From Candidatus Fraserbacteria bacterium (GTDB lineage Bacteria > Bipolaricaulota > Bipolaricaulia > RBG-16-55-9 > DRXL01): a stretch of 64,000 nucleotides of DNA. The position numbers and the translations under genes were made by a program. Positions 42,482 through 59,211 of the stretch are shown here, in pieces (the first letter of the stretch is position 1; each line of letters begins with the position of its first letter). The notes beneath the pieces were generated by a model. That model saw nothing but the letters and a program-made list of their open reading frames with translations, was not told where the DNA came from and did not search any database. The stretch is from the NCBI GenBank assembly GCA_037440025.1, contig JBBIUX010000002.1, forward strand, positions 15,379-79,378. The letters run 5' to 3'.

Positions 42482-43666
42482 CTACGGGGAACACGTGCCA
42501 ATGAGTTGAGAGTAGACGTTGAGTTCGCCGCGCGCCCCGATATTGAGAATCCACAGCGCCATAGCATCCCCTTGAGGGATGAGTTGCACCTGCGTGGGCA
42601 CGATGGGGTCTCCCGAAATGGCAGCATCCAGTGGCAGTGTCAAGGACCACTTCAAGTCCTTGCTTAACAGGGTGACGCTCGCGCCACCACGATCCACACC
42701 GGTGTTGGTCACGACAACCCAGCACTTATTATCTGTAGCAATGCCACGCGGGGCATCGCCGACTTCAACTTCAGCAACAACGCTCGTCGGTTGCGGATCT
42801 ACGGAGAGCTGGCTGACGCTGTCGCCTACGCTGTTAACGACGTAAGCTGTGTCTCCGATCATCGCCATAGCCCGCGGGTAGGCTCCTGTCCCCACACACG
42901 CGCCGACCTCAATCTTCTCTTCACCTTTTTTGACTTTCTCGCCATCAGCATTGATGTTCTTGATCTCGCACACCTGCCACGTATCTGTATTGACGACATA
43001 GGCTTTGTCGCCCTTGAGCATAATATCGGCTGGGCTGGGATAGGTGGGGTTCTCTTCGCTGGGGTCGAGCTTCACGGTGGCAATCACGTCGCCTTTATCT
43101 GGAGCATCATTTTTGTAGGAGATATCCACGACACTCACCGTATGGGCGCGCTCGTTGACAGTAAAGGCACGCGTGCCATCTGCATTGACGGCAACGGCCC
43201 GAGGTCCCTGACCTACGGCTACCTTTTTGGGGGCCTTGGCTTCGGTGGGTTTGCCATCTTTGTCAAAGACCACTTGAGAGATATACAACGTGCCGTCGTC
43301 GAAGCCAGGAATGAACAACGCTTTTTTTGCCTCGTTGTAGGCTATATCTTGTGGGTTGATATTGCCGCGGATCTGGACCAGGCAGATTTCACCAGCAACC
43401 GGGCAGCCGCGGACCTTTTTGCCAGCAAACTTTAAGGTATTCGAGTCAGCCGCCACAAGAAAGACCGAGCTGTCTTTCCCCACACTGACAGCCACAAGGA
43501 CATATCGGCCATCGGCCGTGGACGTAAAACCGTTGACTTTGGAACCCCCAAGATCAAGTGTCGCTGAAGGCCGGAGACCAACGGGGTCCGCCGAGCTGGT
43601 AAGGAATATCATACTTAGCAACACAAGTGCTGCACCCAAAAACCTATATTTTCGAACCATCGTCAC
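42482..43666 (-). CDS. Secreted YVTN/YncE-like beta-propeller protein
   Basis: Signal peptide; VGQGPRAVAV...AFTVN, AYVVN repeats. Confidence 0.85.
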   Translation of the reverse strand: MTMVRKYRFLGAALVLLSMIFLTSSADPVGLRPSATLDLGGSKVNGFTSTADGRYVLVAVSVGKDSSVFLVAADSNTLKFAGKKVRGCPVAGEICLVQIRGNINPQDIAYNEAKKALFIPGFDDGTLYISQVVFDKDGKPTEAKAPKKVAVGQGPRAVAVNADGTRAFTVNERAHTVSVVDISYKNDAPDKGDVIATVKLDPSEENPTYPSPADIMLKGDKAYVVNTDTWQVCEIKNINADGEKVKKGEEKIEVGACVGTGAYPRAMAMIGDTAYVVNSVGDSVSQLSVDPQPTSVVAEVEVGDAPRGIATDNKCWVVVTNTGVDRGGASVTLLSKDLKWSLTLPLDAAISGDPIVPTQVQLIPQGDAMALWILNIGARGELNVYSQLIGTCSP

Positions 43667-44012
43667 GCAACCTCCTTTTGGGACGTGTTATGTGAGTAAC
43701 GTTGTCAGACTATATATCCCGCAACTGTATTAGAGATATAAAGTTGCTCTGCCTGACAGAATGGCATGTGCTCTTCTCCAGCCATCACCTCCCTTGGCTG
43801 ACTCCAGACCTGAAAGGTGAAAGTACTACTCACACTGTTAACTAAAGATTAGCACGAACGGGCGATATTTGTCAAGCAGCCTTCTCAGTTGGTTCCTCCC
43901 TGTTGTGCCGCTCCAGGGCAAAAGTAGCTGACTGGACTTGCCAAAACTGTTCCCGAGCCCACTCAGGAGCCCCTGTTGGCAATCGCTTCTGGGAAATGAT
44001 ATAATGCCCTTA

Positions 44013-45266
44013 ATGATGGCAAAACACATCCACCAACGATGGATATGGCTGAAGCTTTCACTAGGCCTAGTTTTGTTGGTTGGCGTGATAGCTTCGAGCG
44101 ATCCCGTTATCACTTTCAAGCTTACTCAGCATATAGACACCGGTTCTAGCACAACAGCCCTTGGCATTGGAGATCTCAACAACGATGGTGCCGTAGATCT
44201 AGTAGCGTCGATGGTGATTGTTGTCGATGAAGAGAAAGACCTCAAGAAGATCAATGTAGCTCTCTCTATGGGGCGCGGTGGAGGGGTTTTTACAGCACCT
44301 CAGTTGGTCGAGTTCAACTCCATCAGAGCAAGCGATACCGTGCAGGTTCCGCGCGGAAAAGTCCTCGCGCTCGGAGATGTGAATAGCGATGGGCAGCTGG
44401 ATGTTGTGCTCGCTTATCCCACGGGTGGAAGCGTCTGGGTCCTGCTGGGCGACGGGAACGGTCCGCTCCGCGCACTTTCGAGTCGCGATTTGCCTCGCGG
44501 CCTTCGAGATGTCAGTTCAGTAGCGCTAGCCGACTTCAATGGCGACAAACGTCTCGATATTATCTGCACGAACTTACAGGGAAGCGTCTATGTGCTTCTC
44601 AATAACGGCACGGAACAGATCGATCGCTGGGGCATCCAAGAGACATTTATCGGTGGAAGCCTGCAATCTATAGCTGTCAGTGACCTCAATGGCGATGCCA
44701 AGGTGGATGTGGTCGTGAGCAGCATTGGTAGGGCAGCGGTGCTTTTGGGGGACGGTAGAGGGGGCCTTCGTATTGAGCAGCGCTTGTCAGCAGGGCTTTA
44801 TTCGGGGGACTCCCCGGCGTGGATCGAGGTCGCTGATATCAATGGCGACACGTTTGGCGATTTAGTGACGGCCAATCCTGAGAGCGACCGTCTGCTAGTT
44901 TTTCCGGGGGACGGCACAGGGAGATTCGGTGAGCCTCGTGCGTGGCCCACCAGTGCTCTTGACCCACGTGCCATCGCCGCTGCCGATTTCAATGGAGACG
45001 GCTGGCTCGATCTGGCAGCAGTGAACTCTTCGAGCAACGCTGTCACTATCCATCTCAACGATGGTTTCGGCGGCTTTGGCCCTATAGCTCTGAGTGACCC
45101 CCCCAGAGGGAAATTTGTACGATCCAATAAGGCGATTGTTGTGCCAGTGGGGGCGTTGCCGGTGGGCCTCGCCGCAGGGGATCTCGACGGCGACGGCGAT
45201 CCTGATCTTGTGGTAGCAAACCAGGGGGATGACGCCGTCTCGGTCTTGATGAACGAAAGCCGATAG
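44013..45266 (+). CDS. Secreted FG-GAP/VCBS repeat beta-propeller protein
   Basis: Seven (G/A)D(L/F/V/I)NxDGxxD motifs; signal-like N-terminus. Confidence 0.9.
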   Translation: MMAKHIHQRWIWLKLSLGLVLLVGVIASSDPVITFKLTQHIDTGSSTTALGIGDLNNDGAVDLVASMVIVVDEEKDLKKINVALSMGRGGGVFTAPQLVEFNSIRASDTVQVPRGKVLALGDVNSDGQLDVVLAYPTGGSVWVLLGDGNGPLRALSSRDLPRGLRDVSSVALADFNGDKRLDIICTNLQGSVYVLLNNGTEQIDRWGIQETFIGGSLQSIAVSDLNGDAKVDVVVSSIGRAAVLLGDGRGGLRIEQRLSAGLYSGDSPAWIEVADINGDTFGDLVTANPESDRLLVFPGDGTGRFGEPRAWPTSALDPRAIAAADFNGDGWLDLAAVNSSSNAVTIHLNDGFGGFGPIALSDPPRGKFVRSNKAIVVPVGALPVGLAAGDLDGDGDPDLVVANQGDDAVSVLMNESR

Positions 45267-45372
45267 AAAGGGAAAAAGAGCGAGGTCAAGTCTAACAAAC
45301 GCTAATAGAATCAGCGTTTTTGGAAAATCGCCGCCGTATCCGTCAGGGTGGACTGTTAGGTCGGTATAATCT

Positions 45373-45822
45373 ATGGAAGTTCGGATCGAGTTGGCGCGCC
45401 TGGCATACGCCGAGAATATCTTGCGGTGCACCAATGAGCCGCCAGAGATGGTCGAAGACTTGCTCTCTTTAGACGGCGAGCTAGAGAAGGCGCGCCGGTG
45501 GTTTGCTTTTGCGGAGGCGAAGCGACGCTTTGACCCTAACATCGTGCGAGGACTGCTGGTCTATCTCTTCAGTCGCTATACGAGTACGGAGTTCGACCCG
45601 CACAAGCGTGAGCAGCTTGTCCGGGAGATCAATGCAGGGCGTGTGCGTATGCGCGATCTGACCATTGAACGTTTGGCTGGCACACGGTTGAGCTGGGAGC
45701 ATATCTTTCGCCTTGTAGGGTACCAGTTCAACCCCACTCGCGAGAAAGAGAAGATCAAAGAGCTTTATTTGCAGCTGTATTCCGGCAATGGTGCATTTAC
45801 GGAGGTGTCCTATGGACGATAA
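45373..45822 (+). CDS. Hypothetical helical protein, partner of a ZAS-like protein
   Basis: 149-aa ORF overlapping the next gene by 11 nt; possible C-terminal HTH. Confidence 0.75.
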   Translation: MEVRIELARLAYAENILRCTNEPPEMVEDLLSLDGELEKARRWFAFAEAKRRFDPNIVRGLLVYLFSRYTSTEFDPHKREQLVREINAGRVRMRDLTIERLAGTRLSWEHIFRLVGYQFNPTREKEKIKELYLQLYSGNGAFTEVSYGR

Positions 45823-46336
45823 CTACTCCGAGAACGACCTGCAGAAAGAGACGCTCGCCGATTTCACCGGGCTCTTTGCTGATCTAGATAAAACCCTCCA
45901 GTACAAAGATCACCCCGATCAAGATATCTTGCGCGCCTATATTGCCAACAGGCTGCTGGACGCCCCCAGGGCGGGGCGTGTCGGTATGACTTTTCGAGAG
46001 GAGCAAGCCTTTGAGGCATTCTTGCAGGGGCGACTTGTCCGATGGACGCGCTCAGATGTCGCTATGCACGTCTTGACGTGTCAGGTGTGCCAGCAACAGG
46101 TAATGCACTTGCGGGAGAGCCGCTGGCGATTTCTGGCTTTGGCACGAACGCAGCCTCCAAGAGAACAACGGAGTTGGCGCCAACGCTTCGCGATCGGGGC
46201 GATGGCAGGCGCAGCTGTGGTAGCGGTTATCTTCGCCTTATGGTTGTGGCCTCCTGTCCCTTCTCCCATTGACCTTCAGCAAGCGATTGATGGGGGTGTC
46301 ATGGTGGTGTACAGGGCGCCGGGAAGAAGATTTTAG
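45812..46336 (+). CDS. Zinc anti-sigma (zf-HC2/ZAS)-like membrane protein
   Basis: SD GGAGGT; HPDQDILRAY...HVLTCQVC then one TM helix. Confidence 0.75.
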   Translation: MDDNYSENDLQKETLADFTGLFADLDKTLQYKDHPDQDILRAYIANRLLDAPRAGRVGMTFREEQAFEAFLQGRLVRWTRSDVAMHVLTCQVCQQQVMHLRESRWRFLALARTQPPREQRSWRQRFAIGAMAGAAVVAVIFALWLWPPVPSPIDLQQAIDGGVMVVYRAPGRRF

Positions 46337-46482
46337 ACCTTGCTTGAGCAGCCTTGAACTCAGATGTATATACAAGAGAAGACACCAATCCAGCTTCATA
46401 ATGAGAGGGGGTGGTAGAAGCAAAGGAGTGTCCGTTGGGTGCTAGCTCAATACCTAAGCTCAAATACAAAGGAGGTTCGTGA

Positions 46483-55617: not shown

Positions 55618-58600
55618 TTATTGATGCCCCTCTCCGTTATGCCCGCTGACCGTGCATGGGATTTGGCCTGGCCCTTTGCCGATCCATTCATCAATGAAAT
55701 CTTCCATGCGCCTTTCGTCATACGCTGTCAGTTTATCTAAACGTCCCCAGGCCGTGAGCGCGATCTGCTTGAGCTCGAGCTTGTCATACGGCGCTACAAT
55801 CAGCCGACAGTACTGCTCTGCGTCTTCTTCTTGTAAACGTTTGATGAGGTTCTCAATCCGGGTGATGGTCGCGGCGTCGGTCTCTGGGCCATACTGGATA
55901 ATAACACTGCCCCCGCGCAAGGCCCGCACTTGGAGCTCTTCAGCAATCTGCTCTTTGTGCACCCCGAAGACGACTTCTTGATCTATATAGGCCCCAGAGG
56001 TGGGCGGTATGGAGCCATAAGCCTCGTGCTCTTGCCCGGGCGAGATCGGCCCAGCAACTTCTTGAAGAGCGACCGGCATACCGGGTTTGTCATCCGGCCC
56101 TTTGCCTGTGACCTCATAGAGCATCTGCGCGACTTCGCTCGCGCGATAGTTCGGGTCTTCTGCTTTGAGCTTTTCTAACTGCTCTCTCATATCGGCCATC
56201 TTCTGTTGATTGCGGGCGATGGCCGCCAACTGATACAGTGCATCGAGCCCGTCTTCACCTAGCTTTGCGCCAGCCCCGACCAGCGAACGCTCGGCTTCGA
56301 GAATCTTTTCGTAGAGATTTTTCTTCTGGTCGTCGGTGGTCGCCACGGCGAGCCCGGACTTATAGTGATTCTTCGCTTGCTCGTACTCCGCCCGCCCGGT
56401 GGCAACCTCACCGAGGCCAATATAGGCTGCCAGCGCCTGTTGCGGCTCCGGGCCTTGTTCCAAGATCGCTGAATAATGGCGCACTGCCGACTCATAAATG
56501 TGCTGTTTTTGATATTGACGAGCTAGCTGGAAGCGCGTCTCTGCGTCTCTCGGATCAAGCTCAATGATGCGCTCGCCCAGCTGCTCTCGCAGTTCAACGG
56601 CTGCCGTGCGCTTGAAGCCTTCGCGATAATTCTTCAAAGCCTCCTCAATCTTCTCTTGCTTACGTTGAAGGTCCCCAAATGCCAGATAGGCCTCAGCCAG
56701 ATAGGGCGACTCTTTGATCACTTGAGCATATTGCTTCGTGGCTTCTTCGAGATCATTCAGGCCTTCATAGGCTCGGCCGAGCTTGAGGCGCACGTTGGGG
56801 TTGTTCTGGAGCTTGAGCGATTCCAGATAGAGATTGACGGCTCGCTCGTAGTCGTTCTTCTTGGAGGCAATATCGGCCAGCGCTGTCACCAGCCGGGGGT
56901 CATCGGACCTGCGCTCTTTGATCTCTTGCTCACGCAGTTCTGTGTACAGAGCTTCTGATTTGTCCCAGTTCTCCAACCCAAAGTGCGCTTCAGCCAGCTT
57001 CTGTTTGACGGTTCTAATGGCATCTTTATCCTTGACTGGGTCGCTTAGGGCAGCCAGTGCTTTTTCGTAGTGCTCGATGGCAGCCGTGTAGTTCTTCAGG
57101 GACATCATCAAGTGCCCGTACAGCCGGAGCGGCCCGGGGTCATTAGGAGCTAGATCAACAGCGCGTTTTGTCTGCTTGACAGCATCCGCCAAACTTTGCT
57201 CATCGCCTTCAGTAAAGAGAAAGAGCCCGTATTGATAGTACGCTTGAGCGTTTTCTGGGTCCAGTGCAATCAATTGGTCATAGAAGCTGCGATCCCCGCC
57301 GGCTGATCTTGCCGTTTCCAATAAGTGTTGGACGGCCTTTTGCGCGTACTCTTTGATCTTTTGCTCCAGCTCTTGTAGTTTTGCTTCCTTGTTCTCGACG
57401 TTCTCTTGTTTTTCTAAGTTGGCTTTCTCTTGTTCGGCTTGCCGGATTTTGACCTGATAGAGCCGGGCAACATAGTAATCCAGGTACTCGCTGAGCTTGC
57501 GCTCGCTTTCGATGAACTGGTTATTGCTCAGCAGCACCACGGGTACATCCCCCTCGGGTAGGCTCTCTTTGAGTAATTGCTCGTACGCTGCGATGGCTTC
57601 GTCAACCTTCTCTTGTTGTTCGAGTTGATAAGCCGCGATCAAGGGCAACTTGAGCTCAATCGTTGCTAACGCTTTCGTCTGCTTGAGCCATTCATTGAAG
57701 CCATCTACGCGCCGGCGCACCCTGTAATCGTTGGCCAAGCCCTCTCTGATGGTTGCTAGATTTTTTCGGTCTTCCAAGCGCACCAGAAACAGGCCCTCAG
57801 GTGTTTGAATAAGATCGCTCACTTGGCCCACCTGGAGTTTGGCGACGGCGCTTTGAAGCTCTTGGGGCAGCTCGCTGAGGGTACGATAGCCCAGATCGCC
57901 GCCGCGCTCGGCGACATCGGGGTCTTTGGAGTATTCTCTGGCGACTGCAGAGAAGCTAGCCCTCTCCACGTTGAGCTTGTCTTTGGCTTCTTGGAGCTGT
58001 TTGCGAGCAGCGATCAGTTCGTCCTCGGGAGCATCAGGAGCGATGGGAATAAAAATTCTACTCAGGCGGACGCGTTCGGGGGCTTGGCCCTGTTTGGCCG
58101 CTTCAAGCCATTGGCTCATGAGGGCATCTTCTCTCTCGCGAACCCAGTCGCGGCGCACATCGGCTTGAGCTTGCTCGAAATTGCGCACGCGCTTGTCTTC
58201 AACTTTTATCAGGTGAAACCCGAACTGTGTACGCACGGGCGCGCTCACTTTCCCAATATCCAAGGCAAAGGCGGCTTCTTCGAACTCCTTGACCATGACG
58301 CCCTTGCCAAACCAGCCCAGATCGCCGCCCTTCTCAGCGTTGCTCTTGTCGTCAGAATGCTTGGCCAGTTCAGCAAAGTCGGCTCCCTTATCAAGCTGTT
58401 TTTTGATCTCTTCGATCTTCTTCTGGGCTTCAGCGACTTTGTCTTCTGAGGCATCTTGCTCCACGCTCACGAGAATATGACGGGCTTTGACTTCAGGAGT
58501 TGCGTATTTCTCTCTGTTGGCCTCGAAGTATGCTTGCAGGTCGGCAGTCGATGGCTGCATATAGCCCAAAATATCGTTTACATAGCGCGTCTTGTTCTGT

Positions 58601-59211
58601 TCAATGAACTCCAACAACCGGGCGTCCGTAACTTCGATCTGGCCAGCGACAGCTTCTTCCAGAGCTTCTTCTTTGAGGGTAGCTGTCACCTGCTCGCGCA
58701 TCTGTCGCTGATAGGCCGTCAGGGAGGTGTTATATTGTTCCTTCAATAATCGCGCCAGCTCCTTCTCGTCAATACCGTAACGCTGGCGCAGCATCACCAA
58801 AAAATTGTCATATTCTTGCTGGTACTGCTCGTTGATCTTTTTTGAAGGGACGCTGATAAGCCGTTTCTTGGCTTCGATCTCTTTGAGCGTCTTTTCGATG
58901 AGCCGATCTACAGCCTGGGCGCGCCACTGGAGCTGCCGATAGGCCCCCTCCGGACCATCCAGGGCTCTCCCCATATCTTGATTGAACTGGCGTTGCTCGT
59001 TCAAGATCTCTAAATATGCCCGCTCGTATTGCGCCTTGCTCACTTTCTCTCCATTGACAACAAGAACGGTCTCTTCAGCCGGAGGAGTACGTGTACCGGG
59101 GTTGAACCCTCCCGGCGTGAAGATCACAAAGGCTCCAGCCACGAAACTAATGACAACCGCCCAGATCACGTACTTTCCGTATTTTTCAACAAGCCGACGA
59201 ATCGTGCGCAT
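55618..59211 (-). CDS. Membrane-anchored SurA-N/parvulin PPIase fused to TPRs and a DUF3105-like domain
   Basis: VNGEKV; VKARHILV...GGDLGWF...FGFHLIKV; second parvulin domain; many TPRs; PPTSG...ALTAWG. Confidence 0.88.
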   Translation of the reverse strand: MRTIRRLVEKYGKYVIWAVVISFVAGAFVIFTPGGFNPGTRTPPAEETVLVVNGEKVSKAQYERAYLEILNEQRQFNQDMGRALDGPEGAYRQLQWRAQAVDRLIEKTLKEIEAKKRLISVPSKKINEQYQQEYDNFLVMLRQRYGIDEKELARLLKEQYNTSLTAYQRQMREQVTATLKEEALEEAVAGQIEVTDARLLEFIEQNKTRYVNDILGYMQPSTADLQAYFEANREKYATPEVKARHILVSVEQDASEDKVAEAQKKIEEIKKQLDKGADFAELAKHSDDKSNAEKGGDLGWFGKGVMVKEFEEAAFALDIGKVSAPVRTQFGFHLIKVEDKRVRNFEQAQADVRRDWVREREDALMSQWLEAAKQGQAPERVRLSRIFIPIAPDAPEDELIAARKQLQEAKDKLNVERASFSAVAREYSKDPDVAERGGDLGYRTLSELPQELQSAVAKLQVGQVSDLIQTPEGLFLVRLEDRKNLATIREGLANDYRVRRRVDGFNEWLKQTKALATIELKLPLIAAYQLEQQEKVDEAIAAYEQLLKESLPEGDVPVVLLSNNQFIESERKLSEYLDYYVARLYQVKIRQAEQEKANLEKQENVENKEAKLQELEQKIKEYAQKAVQHLLETARSAGGDRSFYDQLIALDPENAQAYYQYGLFLFTEGDEQSLADAVKQTKRAVDLAPNDPGPLRLYGHLMMSLKNYTAAIEHYEKALAALSDPVKDKDAIRTVKQKLAEAHFGLENWDKSEALYTELREQEIKERRSDDPRLVTALADIASKKNDYERAVNLYLESLKLQNNPNVRLKLGRAYEGLNDLEEATKQYAQVIKESPYLAEAYLAFGDLQRKQEKIEEALKNYREGFKRTAAVELREQLGERIIELDPRDAETRFQLARQYQKQHIYESAVRHYSAILEQGPEPQQALAAYIGLGEVATGRAEYEQAKNHYKSGLAVATTDDQKKNLYEKILEAERSLVGAGAKLGEDGLDALYQLAAIARNQQKMADMREQLEKLKAEDPNYRASEVAQMLYEVTGKGPDDKPGMPVALQEVAGPISPGQEHEAYGSIPPTSGAYIDQEVVFGVHKEQIAEELQVRALRGGSVIIQYGPETDAATITRIENLIKRLQEEDAEQYCRLIVAPYDKLELKQIALTAWGRLDKLTAYDERRMEDFIDEWIGKGPGQIPCTVSGHNGEGHQ

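Follow-up and report, generated by a model that had tools for sequence, protein, structure and literature searches.

The locus considered here lies within a 64,000-nt stretch of DNA, referred to as the window, from Candidatus Fraserbacteria bacterium (contig JBBIUX010000002.1, positions 15,379 to 79,378), and it raises a simple question: what does a membrane zinc-associated anti-sigma (ZAS) protein control when the gene in front of it does not encode a recognizable sigma factor? Two plus-strand genes are involved, namely gene 1 (45373..45822), encoding an all-helical 149-aa protein, and gene 2 (45812..46336), encoding a 174-aa ZAS-type anti-sigma-like protein and overlapping the 3′ end of gene 1 by 11 nt. 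The answer favored here, to which we assign slightly less than an even chance, is an anti-sigma-gated swap of −35 promoter specificity by a free-standing, region-4-like half sigma. It is favored because a non-TTGACA hexamer stands at the exact −35 position of a housekeeping −10 box and is confined to the order that carries solo gene 1.

Ancestry and Predicted Fold of Gene 1

The original prediction had described gene 1 as a 149-aa frame translationally coupled to gene 2 and as not recognizable as a sigma factor; both statements hold. Neither the protein nor its profiles match a sigma family in Pfam, NCBIfam or the PDB sequences, and the comparison of the gene-1 profile with sigma region 2 gives P 0.6%. 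Sequence searches returned rows for retroviral capsid, BEN and designed proteins, all at chance level; the hhalign alignment of the profile to whole extracytoplasmic function (ECF) sigma factors is non-significant and in the wrong register, and the ESM Atlas yielded no usable match. The predicted model consists entirely of helices, with a predicted local distance difference test score (pLDDT) of 91.5; Foldseek searches with it and with the model of a fused relative return nothing at E < 0.001.

The ancestry is read from the fused relatives (L048 type), in which a region-2 fold is followed by a C-terminal helix-turn-helix (HTH) domain, an architecture that places them in the sigma-70 family; region 2 of sigmaE is the highest-probability row among the Foldseek matches listed for their model (prob 0.75). 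All 149 aa of gene 1 align to the C-half of these proteins, past their region-2 domain, and the gene-1 domain occurs in fused, split and solo form across relatives of the same phylum. Gene 1, as defined by its open reading frame (ORF), its predicted model and this alignment, descends from the C-terminal half, in the position of region 4, of a highly divergent Bipolaricaulota sigma-70 family. Residues from about 103 to 136 (45679..45780, +) correspond to a putative HTH that aligns to sigma region 4.2 and is the best-conserved part of the protein, with G116, N120, P121 and R123 showing no variation in an alignment of 44 close homologues. The model predicts a region-4-like fold, to which extra helices (2-52 and 76-101), absent from canonical region 4, are added. 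Among the fused members, P0095 has nearly no insertion before the HTH and may offer deeper profile searches a bridge to canonical region 4.

ECF sigma factors hold both sigma2 and sigma4, as described in the accessible text of PMC7826278. Compared with this group (group 4), gene 1 lacks the region-2 domain and possesses the co-encoded anti-sigma factor (linkage at 76 of 82 loci, complex score of 0.86, as described below). Since region 2 is missing, gene 1 alone is not a sigma factor, and the initial choice between a divergent sigma class and a non-sigma regulator is answered in between: descent from the C-terminal half of a divergent sigma-70 stands, and a sigma factor complete with region 2 does not.

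Gene 2 and Its Predicted Pairing with Gene 1

The start of gene 2 was set at the ATG at 45812, which matches the starts of its orthologues (the first ATG given by the ORF finder is at 45788). The protein comprises a cytoplasmic zinc-motif domain with an insertion of approximately 27 residues, one transmembrane (TM) helix and a 29-residue tail, in agreement with the features initially read from the locus. The predicted zinc-binding motif is H34...H86-x3-C90-x2-C93 (45911..46090, +), accompanied by H34-P35...L40..Y43; across 58 gene 2 homologues there is no variation at H86, C90 or C93, and conservation at H34, P35, L40 and Y43 is at least 90%. The N-terminal cytoplasmic H...HxxxCxxC arrangement of ZAS (class I) anti-sigma factors is therefore present in the protein. 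The predicted TM helix (residues 127-145; 46190..46246, +) is its single hydrophobic segment, with a mean Kyte-Doolittle value of 2.36. Compared with curated families, the window copy falls below every cut-off, including that of zf-HC2, a family matched by 20 of the 58 homologues; the best PDB matches of the gene 2 family profile are the anti-sigma factors ChrR (E 0.0014) and DdvA.

In ZAS proteins the first and second His are usually separated by about 23-26 residues. In gene 2 the distance from H34 to H86 is 52 positions, with 51 intervening residues as first counted, and falls outside this range. A distance of 25 is found in most fused or split loci and one of 31-52 in most solo loci, so that the insertion is typical of the latter and not of the former. 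Other gene 2 subfamilies carry unrelated inserts of differing lengths at the same spot, and the helix duplication once suspected in the insertion is unsupported, with identity at 3 of 10 aa and 10 of 30 nt. Judged from these sequences, a variable insertion accounts for the long His spacing. Nothing in the 29-residue tail hints at the signal. In most orthologous tails (L012-L019), the part beyond the membrane contains CWIE-x2-CW, a possible disulfide sensor, which is missing from the window copy (46250-46336), L018 and L023.

Close homologues of gene 1 number 41, and almost every named record carries the name Ca. Bipolaricaulota, Acetothermia or Fraserbacteria (the exceptions among 23 are four labeled uncultured Thermotogae and one labeled uncultured bacterium). 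Within the window's order, 34 of 35 genomes are positive for the gene-1 profile, as are 9 of the 149 other genomes of the phylum; this genome holds four gene 1-ZAS pairs. Linkage was examined at 72 of the 82 profile matches (10 close paralogues being left out) together with loci from the N-half search, giving 82 distinct loci. An HxxxCxxC gene lies directly 3′ of gene 1 at 76 of them and at none of the remaining 6. Co-occurrence with ZAS genes is thus the rule, and no confident match to an ECF group was obtained, the two points on which the initial proposal had been made to depend.

Of the structural checks suggested at the outset, the fold search brought no match at E < 0.001, as noted above, and the complex prediction favored pairing with gene 2. 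Gene 1 (residues 1-140) modeled with gene 2 (1-122), with zinc included as a passenger, scores 0.86 against 0.07 for the best control, with contact agreement of at least 72% and partner pLDDT of at least 74 across the runs. The mark used for this score is reached by 116 of 157 solved pairs and 2 of 215 mismatched pairs, counts that are only rough for the present case. The best-defined contacts join the N-terminal helix and residues 97-102 of gene 1, including the at least 90% conserved E99, to the 80-89 helix and the insertion (53-71) of gene 2. In the model the gene 1 side of the interface is mainly formed by non-HTH parts; because canonical region 4 has no such parts, the prediction is less likely to echo solved sigma-ZAS complexes. 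Gene 2 is thus predicted to tether gene 1 at the membrane, and control of gene 1 by the ZAS protein, as first proposed, is supported by both linkage and complex prediction.

A Candidate GTCAG Promoter Class in Front of Gene 1

Immediately upstream of gene 1 stands GTCAGG-N17-TATAAT (45342..45370, +), a non-canonical box at the −35 position combined with a housekeeping-type −10, which ends 2 nt before the ATG. The consensus promoter scan did not list it because that scan requires a TTGACA-like −35. A second conserved element, GTCAAG-N15-TAGAAT (orthologue spacer 15-16 nt), lies further upstream (45285..45311, +). The pattern GTCAG(A/G)-N17-TA(T/C/A)AAT recurs upstream of gene 1 in several subfamilies. 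Across 40 solo loci the spacer is 17 nt in 22, 16 nt in 6 and 18 nt in 1; other values are 12 nt (1), 19 nt (3) and 22 nt (5). In this set, from which the motif was discovered, GTCAG is present at 29 of 34 ZAS-linked loci and at none of the 6 orphans (L008, L009, L022, L029, L030 and L032, which have neither a ZAS gene nor the box), and it marks ZAS-linked copies of several distinct gene-1 subfamilies. In genome G102 a motif site lies instead in front of another gene (L223:572-1111), the start of which looks like a ZAS N-terminus.

Genome-wide, the housekeeping −35 is TTGAC (38 vs 1.3). At the 17-nt spacer GTCAG leads the non-TTG 5-mers (12 vs 1.3), its count at any other spacer being at most 3. 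The strict pattern GTCAG(A/G)-N17-TAYAAT has 133 matches in the window's order against 7 with a 20-nt spacer, and 24 against 31 in the rest of the phylum, where canonical promoters number 517 (609 in the order). By family, the matches are 111 in the window's own (18 genomes), 16 in f5 (9), 4 in f3 (3), 1 in f4 (4) and 1 in f2, counts that are not independent across kin. A canonical −10 with a specific, enriched and lineage-restricted upstream box is the hybrid promoter expected of sigma adaptation or appropriation. Two trivial readings were discarded: GTCAG is preceded by TT at only 2 of 17 sites, which speaks against a shifted TTGTCA, and the GTCAA boxes found ahead of several paralogues read as TTGAC on the minus strand, 17 nt from a −10 box of that strand, and were set aside as divergent housekeeping promoters (tRNA-Leu on contig C36).

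One observation is not accounted for by the proposed swap. At loci of the window type, 0-2 nt separate the end of the −10 box from the ATG of gene 1, or the two overlap, so that the transcript would skip the gene 1 start. The site might there serve an anti-sigma-only transcript or autorepression, GTCAAG-N15/16-TAGAAT being the real promoter. This would suit an ordinary DNA-binding regulator acting at GTCAG, either a repressor or a class II activator touching region 4 of sigma-A without replacing it, gated at the membrane by the ZAS protein; the extra helices of gene 1 point in the same direction. We consider such a regulator unlikely, given that the box falls exactly where a −35 hexamer would, its spacing peaking sharply at 17 nt, as for a region-4 reader, and that the gene-1 domain descends from the region-4 position of a sigma factor.

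The GTCAG promoters could also be read by another factor, a group-2 sigma paralogue or an unrelated protein, with gene 1 no more than a target of that factor, serving ZAS proteins as a decoy or adaptor or having another target. The low motif counts in f2 and f4, families that carry gene 1, are consistent with this, as are the predicted gene 2 interface outside the HTH and the two extra primary-like sigmas of this genome. These sigmas, however, both keep the canonical region-4.2 helix, the HTH is where gene 1 is most conserved, and the motif follows ZAS-linked copies of several subfamilies while sparing the orphans; another reader is judged slightly less likely still.

Region-2-like Halves as Possible Partners

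A split sigma acting in trans, in which gene 1 would join the family's region-2-like N-half encoded elsewhere, in the manner of SigO-RsoA or Sig7-Sig8, deserves separate consideration. Adjacent split versions do exist: contig C7 of this genome (L003:463-2178) carries a 257-aa region-2-like gene, a 138-aa gene-1 homologue and a ZAS-TM gene, and contig C62 (L085:1501-2258) holds a further N-half gene that stops after region 2, followed by the apparent TM tail of a ZAS gene. The latter is probably a deletion remnant that lost its gene-1 domain. The window itself shows no region-2 partner gene adjacent to gene 1. The N-half profile is positive in 13 of the 35 order genomes and finds nothing in 21 of the 34 with gene 1, several of them at least 90% complete, although at least one known member (L064 in G104) escaped it and the metagenome-assembled genomes are incomplete. 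Every examined N-half for which sufficient downstream DNA is available is fused to, or lies next to, a C-half of its own, save the truncated C62 copy, and the −10 box is the housekeeping TATAAT. Taken together, these points make a split sigma quite improbable. A region-4-less sigma as trans partner was likewise rejected in this genome, all 7 canonical sigmas being full-length. Against 1.84 billion representatives the N-half profile gave 52 matches, and none of the 40 scanned reached a sigma-family cut-off. The C7 triplet lies directly downstream of a gene with a subtilase-like C-terminal end, by inspection.

Candidate Targets and Neighboring Genes

Returning to the proposed −35 swap, its possible targets were sampled at 20 motif loci from three relatives; the family scan covered the 13 of these with a plausible ORF downstream. 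The uptake-type products were three family-5 binding proteins, one Peripla_BP_6 protein and one ATP-binding cassette (ABC) permease; a trypsin-like protease, a PPC-domain protein, PIG-L, RsfS, DUF6847 and a weak BNR match occurred once each, and two ORFs had no family match. In this genome GTCAG sites precede both solo-type gene-1 copies (C2 and C36) and, labeled by inspection, an amino-acid-binding-protein-like gene, a permease-like gene and one for an 824-aa exported protein.

The suggestion that the pair acts on the flanking beta-propeller and peptide-ABC genes was not borne out: the list of genome sites places no candidate motif in front of them, although other peptide and amino-acid ABC genes do carry one. 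Each of the FG-GAP, beta-propeller and peptide-binding-protein neighbors is retained at 10 of the 11 loci of close orthologues, which is synteny among kin and not evidence of regulation. The divergent secreted beta-propeller genes adjoining gene 1 (lactonase-like and FG-GAP repeat) occupy 42482-45266; a near-consensus TTGGCA-18-TATAAT (43976-44005) falls inside the start predicted for the FG-GAP ORF, which suggests that translation begins at a start codon further on. Ahead of the gene for the peptide-binding protein, TTGAGC-N17-TATATA (46340-46370) reads as a possible separate housekeeping promoter. Further along, 55618-59211 (−) encodes a 1197-aa protein that, by inspection, resembles SurA/peptidyl-prolyl isomerase domains linked to tetratricopeptide repeats and a C-terminal domain.

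On contig C40 (L005:733-2505) a divergent solo subfamily with a CxxC-containing insert precedes a 350-aa ZAS-TM protein whose external portion is long and, by inspection, bears a HEAT-like repeat. Several members of this subfamily have ATC(G/A)GAA/ATCGAA-like boxes before TATACT, not GTCAG.

Proposed Mechanism and Comparison with Known Systems

In ZAS/ECF systems the partner is released by regulated proteolysis or zinc loss. By analogy, gene 2 would hold gene 1 at the membrane until one of these events frees it; gene 1 would then bind GTCAG(A/G) at the −35 position and dock on RNA polymerase as a substitute for the housekeeping sigma's region 4, while that sigma would go on reading the TATAAT −10 box. 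A small set of peptide and amino-acid uptake genes, secreted-enzyme genes and the gene pairs themselves would thereby be switched on. More tentatively, the locus may represent a chromosomal signaling class in which a membrane anti-sigma frees a region-4-only half sigma that redirects the −35 preference of the housekeeping holoenzyme from TTGACA to GTCAG(A/G), with the fused, split and solo stages of this path kept in one phylum.

Sigma switching normally exchanges the whole specificity subunit. If the proposal is true, a module of sigma descent, governed by a classic ECF anti-sigma, would alter −35 recognition and nothing else; RNA polymerase would thereby be reprogrammed in a new way, and nature would supply an orthogonal switch. 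The predicted binding site, candidate regulon and predicted inhibitor complex make it directly testable in vitro. Even if the swap is wrong, an ECF/ZAS module outlives the loss of region 2, in a sigma-70 clade not called by Pfam/NCBIfam. Within a literature coverage that excludes most subscription journals, nothing was found on Acetothermia anti-sigma factors, and the sole listed paper combining Bipolaricaulota and ECF sigma factors concerns FtsH; the main text of PMC7826278 does not mention Acetothermia, and its supplements could list such proteins.

The closest known systems are the ECF sigma/ZAS pairs (SigE-ChrR 2Q1Z, SigL-RslA 3HUG, SigK-RskA 4NQW, SigW-RsiW 5WUQ), which share the coupled genes and the ZAS motif with one TM helix. 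The ChrR match of the gene 2 profile, the zf-HC2 hits and the fused relatives, with region 2 plus tail, extend the likeness. In contrast to these pairs, gene 1 has no region 2 and its region-4-like domain is about 80 residues longer, 51 rather than 24 residues separate the two His, the predicted interface lies on the added helices, and the −10 box is housekeeping-type.

Phage T4 AsiA/MotA retain host −10 recognition and replace −35 recognition. This sigma appropriation (the topic of PMC6755090) resembles the present proposal in keeping the −10 and swapping the −35, but it is a phage two-protein system without sigma ancestry or a membrane anti-sigma. Mycobacterial PafBC, a WYL/winged-HTH factor activated by single-stranded DNA, uses a −26 box (10-nt spacer) and, according to the available text of PMC8635444, likewise works with the housekeeping holoenzyme at hybrid promoters that combine a canonical −10 with a factor-specific upstream box. 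Compared with that description, the box here occupies the true −35 position (17 nt), and its candidate reader is sigma-derived and membrane-gated.

Finally, the split sigmas SigO(YvrI)-RsoA(YvrHa) of B. subtilis, Sig7-Sig8 of Tn916 and gp55-gp33 of T4, as presented in the accessible portion of 10.64898/2026.10.01.756105, place regions 2 and 4 on separate polypeptides, as do the adjacent split versions of the gene 1 family. They differ in that most solo-gene genomes here show no dedicated region-2 subunit, and in that the anti-sigma would gate the region-4 half, an arrangement not met in that portion of the source.
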